DNA from: an uncultured Clostridia bacterium
GTDB lineage: Bacteria; Bacillota; Clostridia; TANB77; CAG-508
Assembly (NCBI GenBank): GCA_947629555.1
Contig: CANRED010000006.1
Span: forward strand, 102 to 64,101
Length of the DNA: 64,000 nucleotides
Direction: 5' to 3'
Position numbers and translations under genes: made by a program. Below, piece by piece: positions 5,900-62,230 of this stretch (the stretch's first letter is position 1; each line of letters begins with the position of its first letter). The notes under the pieces are model-generated. The model saw only the letters and a list, made by a program, of their open reading frames with translations, made no database searches and was not told the DNA's origin.

Positions 5900-5926
5900 G
5901 TAAGGGTCGCATGGTATGAGACCCTT
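5900..5926 (+). repeat. REP-like GC hairpin unit (degenerate, GTAA foot)
   Basis: AAATTTCAAACTGTAAGGGTC...GACCCTT. It shares the left module AAATTTCAAACTGTA with the next unit. Confidence 0.6.
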
Positions 5927-5958
5927 TTGTTGTGTATTAAGAAAATAAATTTCAAACT

Positions 5959-6045
5959 GTAGGGGTCGGCGAGCATTGCATACTGAGGCTGTAACTCACA
6001 TTCGTTCGAACAGCCATAGCATCCCCGACGACCCGTGTAGCGAAA
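5959..6045 (+). repeat. REP-like unit with a ~55-bp nested insertion
   Basis: GTAGGGGTCGGCG ... CCCCGACGACCC arms enclose a GGCTGT...ACAGCC hairpin. The unit is followed by GTGTAGCGAA. Confidence 0.65.
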
Positions 6046-6087
6046 TATAAAGTAAAAGAGGTCGAATAATCGACCTCAATATAATAT

Positions 6088-7290
6088 TTATTCTTCTTTT
6101 AATGTAACTGTAACAGTTTTTTCTTTGCCATCTCTTACTAATTTTATATCTAATTTATCACCTATAGATTTTGAATTTTTAATTTCTGTTAATTCGTCCA
6201 TTGTAGAAATTTGTTTACCATCAGCTTCTATAATAACATCTCCAACTTTAATTCCTGCAAGTTCTGCTGCACTAAAATCTTCAACAGATTTTACATATAT
6301 TCCAACAGGCAATTTGTTTTTTTCAGCTTTTGCTTCATCTAAATCCATACCTTCAATTCCAATGTAAGGACGTTTAACTTTATTATATTCTATTAATTGT
6401 TTATATATATCTATTGTACTGTTTATTGGTATTGCAAATCCCATGTTTTCTACACCAGTAGCAGATATTTTTAAAGTATTTATTCCTATTACTTGACCTT
6501 GTGAGTTTACCAGTGCACCACCACTATTTCCAGCATTTATAGCAGCATCAGTTTGTAAAAGAACATATTTTGTTCCGTCATTACTTGTAATTTCTCTGTC
6601 AACTGCACTAATAATTCCACTTGTAACTGTACTTTTTAATCCTAGAGGATTTCCAATTGCCATTGCAAATTCTCCAATTTTTACAGCAGAAGAATCACCT
6701 AGTTCGGCAGGAGTAAGGCCAGTTTTATCTATTTTTATAACTGCTAAATCTGTTTGTGCATCAGTTCCAATAATTTCAGCTTCATATGGAGTGGTATCAT
6801 TAAATAAATATACAGTAACACTTTTTGCTTCACTTACTTCATAAAAGGCTGAATTAGAAGATGAACTTACTATGTGATTGTTTGTTAAAATGTATCCATC
6901 TTCACTTATGATTATACCTGATCCAGAAGCTGCTGATTCAGAAGAATACTGCATTCCATAACCAAAATTGCTTGTAACGTTAAATGTTACATTGATACCA
7001 ACAATAGATGGCAATACTTTACTTGCAACACCAACTGCAGTATCTGAAAATTGACTTAAAGAAACTAAATCAACAATTCCAGTATTTTGAGTAGTAATTG
7101 TTGATGGAGAAGATGTTTCTTTTGTTTCTCCAATTAATTTTGTTCTAATAGAAGTATTACCGAAACAAACTCCTATTACTAAAGATGTACCTAAAATTCC
7201 ACTTATAAAAGGAACAGCAATACTATTTTTAAAATTAGATTTTGCTTTTTTAGGTTTTTCATTATTAAAATAATCGTTTATATCATCCAT
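6088..7290 (-). CDS. htrA: HtrA/DegP-family serine protease with a C-terminal PDZ domain
   Basis: N-terminal TM helix, a trypsin-like fold with GNSGGAL around the active-site Ser, and a PDZ-like tail. Confidence 0.9.
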   Translation of the reverse strand: MDDINDYFNNEKPKKAKSNFKNSIAVPFISGILGTSLVIGVCFGNTSIRTKLIGETKETSSPSTITTQNTGIVDLVSLSQFSDTAVGVASKVLPSIVGINVTFNVTSNFGYGMQYSSESAASGSGIIISEDGYILTNNHIVSSSSNSAFYEVSEAKSVTVYLFNDTTPYEAEIIGTDAQTDLAVIKIDKTGLTPAELGDSSAVKIGEFAMAIGNPLGLKSTVTSGIISAVDREITSNDGTKYVLLQTDAAINAGNSGGALVNSQGQVIGINTLKISATGVENMGFAIPINSTIDIYKQLIEYNKVKRPYIGIEGMDLDEAKAEKNKLPVGIYVKSVEDFSAAELAGIKVGDVIIEADGKQISTMDELTEIKNSKSIGDKLDIKLVRDGKEKTVTVTLKEE

Positions 7291-7458
7291 AACTAACCCT
7301 CCTATAACTTCATTTTATAATATACTATTTTTACAAAAAAATAAATATATATGTGAAATTTGTAACTAAAATGTAATATTTAATATTGCATTATAAAATT
7401 TGTAAATATATAATAATAAATAATTATTAAATAAAACTTAAAAAGAAAGAAGAATATA

Positions 7459-8085
7459 ATGAAAGAAAAAGAAATAGATAGATTAAATAAGTTAAAAGAA
7501 TACGAAAATGAATTATATGAAACTGGTTTACAATATATTGCAGGAATTGATGAAGCAGGAAGAGGACCTCTTGCAGGACCTGTTGTCGTTGCTTGTGTAA
7601 TACTGCCAAAAGATTCTTTTATAGAAGGAGTAAACGATTCTAAGAAGGTATCTGAAAAGAAAAGGGAAAAATTATATGAAGATATAACTAATGAGGCAAT
7701 AGCATGGGGAGTAGGAATAGTAGATCAAAATGAGATAGACGAAATTAATATATTAAATGCAACAAAAAAAGCACTTACTATGTCAATACAAAGCTTAAAA
7801 GTAAAACCAGATAGAATTTTAGTTGATGCACTAGAGCATATAGATACTTGTGGAATACCATATACTTCTATAATAAAAGGTGATGCTAAAAATTATTCTA
7901 TTGCTGCAGCATCAATAATTGCAAAAGTTACGAGGGATAGAATAATGCGTGAATGGGATAGTGTATATCCACAATATGGTTTTGCAATTCATAAAGGATA
8001 TGGGACAGCAAAGCATATTCAAGCAATAAAAGAAAATGGAATATGTATGTTGCATAGGAAATCATTTGTAAAAAATATAATATAA
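7459..8085 (+). CDS. rnhB: Ribonuclease HII
   Basis: GIDEAGRGPLAGPVV catalytic motif. 208 aa. Confidence 0.95.
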   Translation: MKEKEIDRLNKLKEYENELYETGLQYIAGIDEAGRGPLAGPVVVACVILPKDSFIEGVNDSKKVSEKKREKLYEDITNEAIAWGVGIVDQNEIDEINILNATKKALTMSIQSLKVKPDRILVDALEHIDTCGIPYTSIIKGDAKNYSIAAASIIAKVTRDRIMREWDSVYPQYGFAIHKGYGTAKHIQAIKENGICMLHRKSFVKNII

Positions 8086-8089
8086 GGAA

Positions 8090-8211
8090 GTTTGAAAAAT
8101 AATCAGCATATTACGTCGTTATTTTTAATGAGAAAATCCTCAACGTACCTTAGTATGCCTCCGGTATTTCTCATTAAAAATGCCTAGTACTATACTAATT
8201 CTTTTTCAAAC
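8090..8211 (+). repeat. 122-bp imperfect-palindrome element (ERIC-like; candidate structured RNA), copy 1
   Basis: The outer arms GTTTGAAAAATAATCAGCATA / TATACTAATTCTTTTTCAAAC and the inner arms ATTTTTAATGAGAAA / TTTCTCATTAAAAAT pair. A second copy is at 18877-18998. Confidence 0.85.
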
Positions 8212-8247
8212 TTAATGTGTAAAATTAGAAAGGAATGGGAAGTATTT

Positions 8248-60581: not shown

Positions 60582-60604
60582 GATAATTGAATATTATATA
60601 AACT

Positions 60605-60748
60605 AATAAAATGTATATATTTTTTCTTCACTCACTCCCAACGGCATAACAGGCTGTAGACCGAAATTTACTTTCGTAATTTCTTCTACAGCCTGTAATT
60701 TGTCGGTCCCCACATTCGTTCGTATTGAAAAAATATATACATTTTATT
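60605..60748 (+). repeat. 144-bp nested hairpin element (22-bp perfect terminal inverted repeats, plus 12-bp and 5-bp inner stems)
   Basis: AATAAAATGTATATATTTTTTC (60605-60626) is the exact reverse complement of 60727-60748. The inner stem is ACAGGCTGTAGA / TCTACAGCCTGT (60649-60660 / 60685-60696). A T-run follows. Confidence 0.85.
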
Positions 60749-60864
60749 TTTTGCATAAAAATTTTACAATACGAGATATCTAAATGTTTCCTTTCTAAAA
60801 TTTGACACAAAAATATATTAATCTACATATTATGTAATATACAAAAGTATAAGGAGGAATACAA

Positions 60865-61209
60865 ATGTATAGACATTGCAAATGCCAAAAATGTAATCAA
60901 TGCAATTCTAATAATGATGACATGATAGAAGATATATGTGATGATGTTAATTATTGCGATTGCGATATGAATGACTGCGAATGTGGATTCGACGATGAAT
61001 GTGGCGCATTTCCTGCAAATTATATGTATGGTCAATCTTATGTGCCAATACAAAAGATGAATAAAACTTTTACACCAGAAGTTGGTCTAAGAATGGGAAC
61101 AATATTTCCAGAATTAGTTAGCCCATATATGCCAGGTCAATCTATGGCAGAAATAGAATATTTAAGAAATACAAATATGATAGGGGAGGGATGTAATAAT
61201 GCACAATAA
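60865..61209 (+). CDS. cotJA: Spore coat-associated protein CotJA with a Cys/Asp-rich N-terminal extension
   Basis: The C-terminal half, YVPIQKMNKTFTPEVGLRMGTIFPELVSPY, matches the CotJA signature. It precedes cotJB and cotJC. Confidence 0.8.
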   Translation: MYRHCKCQKCNQCNSNNDDMIEDICDDVNYCDCDMNDCECGFDDECGAFPANYMYGQSYVPIQKMNKTFTPEVGLRMGTIFPELVSPYMPGQSMAEIEYLRNTNMIGEGCNNAQ

Positions 61210-61465
61210 CTGTATGGAATCAACAAGAGAAGAAATGCTTATGAAAATAAGAGAATATAATTTCTCTATAATAGAACTTGCATTATATTTAGACACACAT
61301 CCTGATGATAAAAAGGCAATATGTATGCATAAGGAATATTGTAAAACAGTAAAAGAATTAGAAGATAAATATCAAAAAGTATATGGACCATTAACAATAA
61401 AATATCCATGTAATAAATGGAGATGGCTAGAAGAGCCATGGCCATGGGAAAAGGAGGCAAACTAG
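61199..61465 (+). CDS. cotJB: Spore coat protein CotJB
   Basis: FSIIELALYLDTHPDDKKA...YGPLT pattern typical of CotJB. Confidence 0.85.
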   Translation: MHNNCMESTREEMLMKIREYNFSIIELALYLDTHPDDKKAICMHKEYCKTVKELEDKYQKVYGPLTIKYPCNKWRWLEEPWPWEKEAN

Positions 61466-61466
61466 T

Positions 61467-62102
61467 ATGTGGACTTATGATAAAAGATTAGAATATCCAG
61501 TTAATATAAAATGTCCAAATCCAAAATTGGCGAAAGTAATTATATCTCAATATGGAGGACCAGATGGAGAACTTGCCGCTTCTTTAAGATATTTATCTCA
61601 AAGATTTGGAATGCCAGACCAAAAGTCAAAAGCAATATTAAACGACATTGGAACAGAAGAGCTTGCTCACTTAGAAATGGTAGGTTCTATTGTTCACCAA
61701 CTAACAAAAGGAGCATCAATCGAGGAAATAGAAAAAGCAGGATTAGCACCATATTATACAGATCATGGTGTTGACGTATATCCTGCATCTGCAGCAGGAG
61801 TACCATTTACAGCTGCATATATTGCATGTAAAGGTGACCCTATTGCAAACTTACAAGAGGACTTAGCTGCAGAACAAAAAGCAAGGGCAACTTATGAAAA
61901 ATTAATAGACTTATGTAGGGATGACCCAGATGTTATAGATCCGCTTCGTTTCTTAAGAGAAAGAGAAGTAGTGCATTTCCAAAGATTCGGAGAAGCATTA
62001 AGAGGAGTTCAAGACAAACTTGCTGAAAAGAAATTTTATATGAACAATAATTGTCCTATGAATCAAATGAACAATGACAAAGATTGTGGATGTGGAAATT
62101 AG
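61467..62102 (+). CDS. cotJC: Spore coat protein CotJC (manganese-catalase family)
   Basis: YGGPDGELAASLRYLSQRF and EELAHLEMV di-metal motifs. Confidence 0.9.
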   Translation: MWTYDKRLEYPVNIKCPNPKLAKVIISQYGGPDGELAASLRYLSQRFGMPDQKSKAILNDIGTEELAHLEMVGSIVHQLTKGASIEEIEKAGLAPYYTDHGVDVYPASAAGVPFTAAYIACKGDPIANLQEDLAAEQKARATYEKLIDLCRDDPDVIDPLRFLREREVVHFQRFGEALRGVQDKLAEKKFYMNNNCPMNQMNNDKDCGCGN

Positions 62103-62181
62103 AAACATTTTTTGAATAGATAAAAGTTAAGAGAAATTTCTCTTAACTTTTTTAATTGTATAGGAAAAATCTATACAAACT

Positions 62182-62230
62182 GTAGGGGGTCGACGGCCTT
62201 AGGCGACTCGTGTGGCGAAGCCACTTTTTT
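62182..62230 (+). repeat. REP-like GTAG unit plus GTGGC-GAA-GCCAC hairpin and T6 (cotJ operon terminator)
   Basis: GTAGGGGGTCGACGGCCTTAGGCGACTCG TGTGGCGAAGCCAC TTTTTT. Confidence 0.75.

Follow-up and report, generated by a model that had tools for sequence, protein, structure and literature searches.

The window analyzed here, a 64,000-nt stretch of DNA from an uncultured Clostridia bacterium (G000:C6:102-64101, given as genome, contig, and positions), contains a series of short GC-rich hairpins, which we interpret as GTAG-tagged repetitive extragenic palindromes (REPs), the substrates of REP-associated tyrosine transposases (RAYTs, also known as TnpAREP), HUH/Y1 enzymes with genes in other parts of this genome. 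We put the probability of this interpretation at roughly 0.87. Mobilization of the hairpins by RAYTs had been proposed in the first-pass annotation of the window, and our analysis supports that proposal: the hairpin family is genome-wide, RAYT-like genes are present, and the copies are near-identical to each other.

A genome-wide family of GTAG-tagged hairpins

The assembly containing the window (1.30 Mb in 45 contigs, 27.7% GC, 95.6% completeness) was compared with 40 relatives, giving a set of 41 genomes, and was scanned for GTAG followed by a GC-rich hairpin. The scan returned 188 loci, 176 of which have a stem starting with GGG or GGA and are referred to as core copies. With about 176 core copies in 1.30 Mb, or approximately 1 copy per 7 kb, enrichment of the family extends beyond the window. 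Within the window, TGTAGGG occurs 15 times against 2.9 expected, a number reached in 0 of 100 shuffles, and reversed control patterns had no match across the 41 genomes. The GTAG foot dominates the GC-rich hairpins of this genome, GTAG/TAGG being found on 227 of 610 arm counts (each hairpin was counted on both strands). A search of the window against Rfam at gathering thresholds recovered only 2 tRNAs, so that the hairpins are explained by no known RNA family.

The repeat units are short GC-rich imperfect palindromes of 24-28 nt, and the core copies sort into 6 stem families:

Family A: stem GGAACGACG, 85 copies
Family B: stem GGGTCGATG, 26 copies
Family C: stem GGGTCGGCG, with one mismatch, 26 copies
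Family D: stem GGGTCGCATG, 17 copies
Family E: stem GGGTCGCTTAG, 8 copies
Family F: stem GGGTTGCATG, 9 copies

With 58 of the 85 family A copies identical over 26 nt, these are near-identical repeats rather than unrelated terminators. Outside the GTAG and the hairpin, only a T at position −1 (160/175 copies) and a G at position +1 (136/175) are conserved, and the dinucleotide preceding GTAG is TT, CT, or AT in 152/175 copies.

The surroundings of the hairpins are more heterogeneous than the first-pass annotation had envisaged. The A-rich left module that it took to be shared is not a single module, at least 3 different left modules being present and many copies having none. The second modules that it reported downstream of the hairpins do exist, but their linkage to REPs is only partial, with some copies found apart from REPs: GTGGCGAAGCCAC is present in 25 copies, 11 of them directly 3′ of a REP, and GTCACCGAAGGTGAC in 16 copies, 9 of them directly 3′ of a REP. 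GTGGC-GAA-GCCAC and GTCACC-GAA-GGTGAC are separate repeats, which often, although not always, adjoin a REP. Given that the left modules differ and that the right-hand hairpins are separate repeats, the elements are mosaic. A simple AGTGAAT-rich repeat (e.g., G000:C10:1-2900; a 13-mer finds 76 matches genome-wide if one change is permitted) and a CAAAATTTGC-TTTG-GCAAATTTTG hairpin often adjoin REPs as well; many contigs end in clusters of the AGTGAAT repeat, this hairpin, and REPs, and hence these repeats probably break the assembly. One composite locus is shared by 2 species (G000:C22:15418-15668 and G002:C35:1158-1408, L017), where 2 inverted family A copies are separated by 199 nt of other repeat modules; the sequences are approximately 99% identical over 325 nt, against 91.6% for the whole 3-kb alignment. 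The pair on G002:C35 was considered as a marker of a RAYT gene and rejected, because it is part of an intergenic composite orthologous to G000:C22:15418-15668.

Inspection of the window confirmed a GC-rich hairpin of the described type at all 17 positions listed in the first-pass annotation. Ten of these are intact units, in which GTAG is directly followed by a GC-rich stem of 9-11 bp with a loop of 3-6 nt, whereas 2 have a mutated foot, 2 an eroded stem, 1 lacks the foot, and 2 are left halves (53289 and 55120), each located 47 nt before an intact copy. The copies are as follows:

5900..5924, plus strand: decayed REP of the family D type, foot GTAA
5959..6034, plus strand: intact GTAG REP of family C with a nested insert of approximately 50 nt in the loop
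9629..9654, plus strand: intact family A REP with a trailing run of six T, 80 nt past a pdp-like open reading frame (ORF)
16953..16979, minus strand: REP, family C variant, the sole intact minus-strand copy of the window
19546..19571, plus strand: REP of family B with the mutated foot ATAG
23341..23365, plus strand: decayed REP of family A, stem eroded
24980..25005, plus strand: intact family C REP that opens a direct cluster of three
25039..25063, plus strand: intact REP of family D, second in the cluster of three
25099..25141, plus strand: decayed REP of family A (eroded stem) with a decayed GTGGCGAAGC module, third in the cluster
35583..35608, plus strand: intact REP, family B-like
50469..50492, plus strand: A-like hairpin without the GTAG foot
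53234..53258, minus strand: A-like hairpin without the foot, just after the long ORF 50603-53206; additional to the 17 positions
53289..53415, plus strand: composite of a half REP-A (53289-53302), an intact REP-A (53336-53361), a GGCTCC/GGAGC hairpin, and a GTCACC-GAA-GGTGAC hairpin (53401-53415)
54113..54162, plus strand: intact REP-A (54113-54138), preceded by the left module AAAAATCAATGTAAACT, and a GTCACC-GAA-GGTGAC hairpin
55120..55192, plus strand: half REP-A (55120-55133) and intact REP-A (55167-55192)
62182..62224, plus strand: intact REP, family C variant (62182-62209), GTGGC-GAA-GCCAC hairpin, and T run, 80 nt past a cotJC-like ORF

The insert in the loop of the second copy (5971-6030) is itself a small repeat of approximately 36-44 nt with a GGCTGT/ACAGCC hairpin, of which about 9 other copies are found in the genome. 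The direct cluster of 3 REPs, which belong to 3 different families, separates 2 short ORFs consisting of WG_beta_rep repeats (24477-24911 and 25326-25859); this region (24477-25859) belongs to the 2 kb with the highest GC content in the window (34.7%). Further downstream, positions 53288-55230 are occupied by 2 tandem cassettes for BspA-type LRR_5 proteins (ORFs 53557-54042 and 54307-55068), each preceded by a REP-A, a GTCACC-GAA-GGTGAC hairpin, a perfect match to a TTGACA-17-TATAAT promoter, and a conserved leader; downstream, both cassettes have the same AGCACAGG...CCTGTGCT hairpin and T run.

RAYT-like genes and the REPs within them

Searching the genome with the PF01797 (Y1_Tnp) profile identified 4 places, 2 of them IS200-like and 2 RAYT-like. 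Both RAYT-like genes, on contigs C15 and C1, lie outside the window. The first (G000:C15:231-779) is an intact ORF of 182 aa. The second (G000:C1:112635-113168) is an ORF of 177 aa, from which an in-frame TAA cuts off the conserved N-terminal part; the stop falls at codon 7 of that part (G000:C1:113168-113234; L004 2000-2062, minus strand), and the longest ORF starts from an internal Met that immediately precedes the first strand. NF047646 ("REP-associated tyrosine transposase") is the best family for both proteins, with 70 and 58.5 bits, the scores of the IS200 model being far lower (19.9 and 30.6 bits). When a profile of 23 homologues was compared with solved structures, the Escherichia coli TnpAREP (4ER8) ranked first with an E value of 4e-11, compared with values near 0.01 for IS200-type transposases, and 4ER8 was also the top Foldseek match (E 3e-7, TM score 0.52/0.57) of an AlphaFold2 model (predicted local distance difference test score 77.8). 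The RAYT-like proteins display the motifs NHIH, WQ, and YIENNP or YIQNNP; residues H100, H102, Q146, Y166, N170, and P171 are invariant in the 23 homologues, and the C15 protein has all catalytic residues. The motifs of TnpAREP subclass 2.4 are NH[IFV]H, WQ, and YIxNNP (PMC6006769, Table 1), and this subclass corresponds to RAYT group 4 (PMC5581495). Judged by their motifs, both proteins are subclass 2.4-like RAYTs.

Each RAYT-like ORF contains 2 in-frame REP copies, which are inverted relative to each other and share one stem family; in the C15 gene both are family C copies, and in the C1 gene both belong to family A. The first copy is in sense orientation and follows the first strand (in the C15 gene it reads VGVGVPDDP), whereas the second is antisense, follows the HUH strand, and encodes GSSRTPTPT. 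A third REP copy is located upstream of the C15 gene. The first-pass annotation had suggested looking for a Y1 transposase gene flanked by 2 inverted REP copies; such a physical tie is indeed found, except that the copies are within the ORF rather than flanking it. In-frame REP insertions between HuH and Y are a hallmark of TnpAREP subclass 2.4 (PMC6006769), and RAYT genes carrying their cognate REPs are the hallmark of a REPtron.

The pattern recurs among the relatives, with REPs of other stem families inside the RAYT ORFs of G004, G005, G021, G012, and G029. In G012, where the in-gene REPs have a flipped arrangement, there are 3 RAYT loci, each with its own family, and in G018 the REPs flank the RAYT gene in the classical arrangement. 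The RAYT orthologue of G002 (L018 1270-1990, G002:C22) is frameshifted and decayed and contains copies of families D and F: a family D REP follows the HUH strand, a family F-like REP lies antisense just before the WQ motif, and a partial duplicate of the HUH region comes next. In 8 genes read at the DNA level, both in-gene REPs are of one family; as a strict rule for in-gene pairs this was rejected, since it fails at larger distances, as seen from the protein motifs in the homologue alignment.

Several features of the in-gene REPs concern the DNA rather than the protein. The REP-coded codons have G or C at the third position in 14/16 cases, compared with a fraction of 0.14 in the rest of the gene; the in-gene 26-mers do not differ between genera whose proteins share only 57-76% identity; and the REP-coded segments form low-confidence loops in the AlphaFold2 model. 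From these observations we infer that conservation of the in-gene REPs operates on the DNA, whether through selection acting on the element or because it has been copied repeatedly. A further step, which we consider doubtful, is that the inverted pair bracketing the HUH-coding core is maintained as a nucleic-acid element with a cis-acting role, or as a master copy, instead of being tolerated junk; this idea builds on the same 26-mers and codons and on the presence, in each paralogue, of its own family at both sites. If it were true, the RAYT could detect or cleave the gene that encodes it, or the transcript of that gene, providing self-limitation or an on/off switch; alternatively, the RAYT gene might be a protected master copy that seeds the genomic REP families.

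The IS200-like places on C25 and C20 correspond to 2 copies of a resident IS200/IS605-type insertion sequence (L001 1312-2038, G000:C25, and L002 25-755, G000:C20), which share 731 bp at 92.6% identity, have subterminal hairpins CCCCCAG...CTGGGGG, and each encode a TnpA of 158 aa. Their strong PF01797 and NF033573 scores make them the natural starting point for another explanation, namely that the REPs are miniature derivatives of this element, comparable to miniature inverted-repeat or palindrome-associated transposable elements, and are moved by its TnpA. We regard this as extremely improbable. The end hairpins of the element are unrelated to any REP family and have no GTAG foot, on which ground the element was rejected as the REP source; furthermore, no REP adjoins either of its copies, and REP copies sit in the RAYT-like genes instead.

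How a RAYT would act on these REPs can be outlined by analogy with E. coli, Stenotrophomonas, and Marinomonas (PMC8266576, PMC3333891, PMC3479197). The enzyme would bind the folded REP on single-stranded DNA, use the GTAG foot for recognition and for the choice of the cleavage site, and cut and rejoin next to the hairpin; in this way, REP copies could be gained, lost, or swapped, the lagging-strand template being the likeliest place. In those systems, TnpAREP binds single-stranded REPs, needs GTAG, and cuts at CT or CA beside the hairpin (PMC8266576). The TT, CT, or AT found before GTAG is compatible with a CT/CA-like cut site, although it is no proof of one.

Placement, distribution, and turnover of the REPs

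Although a crude ORF set gives approximately 87% of the genome as coding, 149 of the 188 hits are intergenic, and most of the "genic" hits are inside short spurious ORFs created by the GC-rich clusters. The strand carrying GTAG is the G-rich strand in 144/155 copies with usable local skew, and where the flanking genes are co-directional it shares their sense in 84 cases, compared with 9 in which it does not. From what is established for IS200/IS605 elements, the template of the lagging strand, single-stranded while replication proceeds, corresponds to the G-rich strand, and the strand bias would thus fit a single-strand mechanism. Neighboring copies within 400 nt are mostly direct (39 versus 6 inverted, 2 of the latter being the in-gene RAYT pairs). 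The inverted pairing of bacterial interspersed mosaic elements (BIMEs), which the first-pass annotation had suggested tabulating, was therefore not seen in this genome, where singlets and direct clusters prevail; such pairing is typical of some REP systems and is not a defining property of REPs.

The preference for the sense strand of flanking genes could also be read as a sign that the hairpins are mainly host transcription elements, that is, intrinsic terminators or mRNA-stabilizing 3′ hairpins under in-place selection, with an incidental link to RAYTs. Several copies indeed follow ORF ends and have T runs, for example, those at 9629 and, through its GTGGC-GAA-GCCAC module, 62182, and terminator-like sites number 16 in the window region 50000-64000 against 3.7 expected. 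However, a T-rich tail (5 or more T among the 9 nt that follow) is present in just 31/171 copies (18%) and in 8/85 copies of family A, and several copies in the window come after a separate AT-rich terminator hairpin, not in its place. Moreover, 58 loci with identical 26-mers cannot arise site by site, REP copies are found within the RAYT ORFs, and the family is present in some species of one genus and absent from others. We thus consider a main role as host transcription elements improbable. The first-pass suggestion that the hairpins sit where terminators are expected may hold for single copies with a T run, such as 9629 after the pdp-like and 62182 after the cotJC-like ORF, but terminator function is not supported as a general role. 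For a minority of copies, in combination with attached modules such as GTGGC-GAA-GCCAC and its T run, a second role as hairpins at transcript 3′ ends is probable.

In the comparison set, family A is restricted to the genus of the window, where it occurs in 4 of the 7 genomes (75, 104, 27, and 2 copies). REPs of the GGGTCG type were found in 16 of the 41 genomes, including the window's own and every one of the 12 relatives whose best RAYT hit was strong (E value of 1e-18 or lower); of the 28 relatives without a strong hit, 3 hold such REPs, 2 of them in more than 1 copy. REP presence thus tracks RAYT presence, as a pattern and not as a test, because related genomes are not independent. In G029, the exact stem type found in and beside its RAYT gene is present in 74 copies. 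At the level of individual loci, the spacers orthologous to those of the copies at 9629, 23341, and 35583 contain other REP types, decayed copies, or none in the 5 species of the genus compared, and 4 species of the genus lack, in the corresponding spacer, a stretch of approximately 80 nt that includes the 23341 copy. In G018, which belongs to a sister genus, inverted doublets approximately 100-130 nt apart occur; in examples such as C7:59606-59760, C13:24534-24688, and C36:8553-8707, some 100-115 nt separate the arms, which are often of the GGGGTCGGCG type on one side and the GGGGCTGGCG type on the other; these resemble REPINs (REP doublets forming hairpins), unlike the copies in the genome of the window.

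Whether this spread belongs to the past bears on a third explanation, according to which the REPs are relics that are now immobile because the RAYTs have become inactive or domesticated for another task. RAYTs are generally seen as domesticated single-copy genes (PMC5581495), and the premature TAA of the family A-bearing RAYT, the frameshifted G002 orthologue, and the decay of many window copies all agree with such a state. Nonetheless, the 58 identical family A copies and the species-specific expansions to 75, 104, and 27 copies in one genus point to recent spread, and no catalytic residue is missing from the C15 RAYT, which is intact. Consequently, we give the relic explanation very little chance.

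Some observations weigh against mobilization of the REPs by the RAYTs of this genome. The family A-bearing RAYT may be defective, and in G004 and G005, which have 104 and 27 family A copies, respectively, no close orthologue of it was found, only paralogue-level matches of approximately 50% identity. No RAYT carrying families B, D, E, or F is present in this genome. Both RAYT-like proteins score under the curated NF047646 cut-off of 80 bits; their match is interrupted by the REP-coded inserts. Replication and transcription are inseparable as causes of the strand bias, since 82% of the genes follow the skew and just 4 informative copies are located among genes opposing it. Finally, the search for a strain-level pair of filled and empty sites yielded none: one flanking protein matched 2 contigs, both with the same filled spacer, and the other flanking protein had no record.

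Comparison with known REP/RAYT systems

To our knowledge, work on REP/RAYT systems has been confined almost entirely to Proteobacteria, apart from surveys covering Cyanobacteria and Bacteroidetes. Our literature search found no paper on such systems in Clostridia; neither "Firmicutes" nor "Clostridi" appears in the main text of a survey of GTAG-tagged sequences (PMC3733652), and for Clostridia a 2017 study of RAYTs noted only group 1 RAYTs (PMC5581495). The present case extends a known type of system to hosts in which there is hardly any description of it: a full REP/RAYT system, with 6 REP families and 2 RAYT paralogues, in a reduced, spore-forming Clostridia lineage of 28% GC. Metagenome assemblies of Clostridia contain thousands of homologues of the RAYT, suggesting that the system is probably common in gut Clostridia and under-annotated. 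As GC-rich units stand out in AT-rich genomes, such genomes offer a clean setting for studying REP turnover, strand bias, and in-gene REPs. For annotation, hairpins of this kind should not be labeled as terminators by default, and it should be kept in mind that REP clusters generate spurious short ORFs.

The E. coli REP/BIME system with its TnpAREP, a REPtron (PMC3333891, PMC3479197, PMC8266576), shares with the one described here the GTAG directly 5′ of an imperfect GC-rich palindrome, the high copy number and mostly extragenic location, and an HUH/Y1 enzyme, 4ER8 being the nearest solved structure. By contrast, the E. coli enzyme belongs to subclass 2.2 (DHLH / WE / YIHYNP), its REP stems are bulged, and its REPs pair as inverted BIMEs and flank the gene, whereas here direct neighbors outnumber inverted ones by 39 to 6 and the REPs are within the gene. 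With the REPINs and group 3 RAYTs of Pseudomonas (PMC3116915, PMC3337134), the common features are several REP families, each of which would be tied to its own RAYT paralogue, and recent within-genome spread; the Pseudomonas unit is, however, an inverted doublet, unlike the singlets and direct clusters of this genome. The survey of GTAG-tagged sequences (Di Nocera et al. 2013, PMC3733652) described the same tag, several families per genome, REPs that favor spacers between co-directional or convergent genes, and occasional copies in frame within genes.

Closest to the system reported here is TnpAREP subclass 2.4 (Quentin et al. 2018, PMC6006769), to which the 2 proteins would belong by their motifs. 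Besides these motifs and a protein length near the subclass median, the shared features include "long" REPs with 3 G-C pairs at the base of the stem and a 5′ GT[AG]G foot. The hosts differ, the subclass being abundant in Cyanobacteria and Bacteroidetes and scattered elsewhere, whereas here the host is a member of the Clostridia with a 1.3-Mb genome of 28% GC. The genes differ as well: in the present RAYTs a second in-gene REP follows the first strand, and the 2 inverted copies bracket the HUH-coding core.

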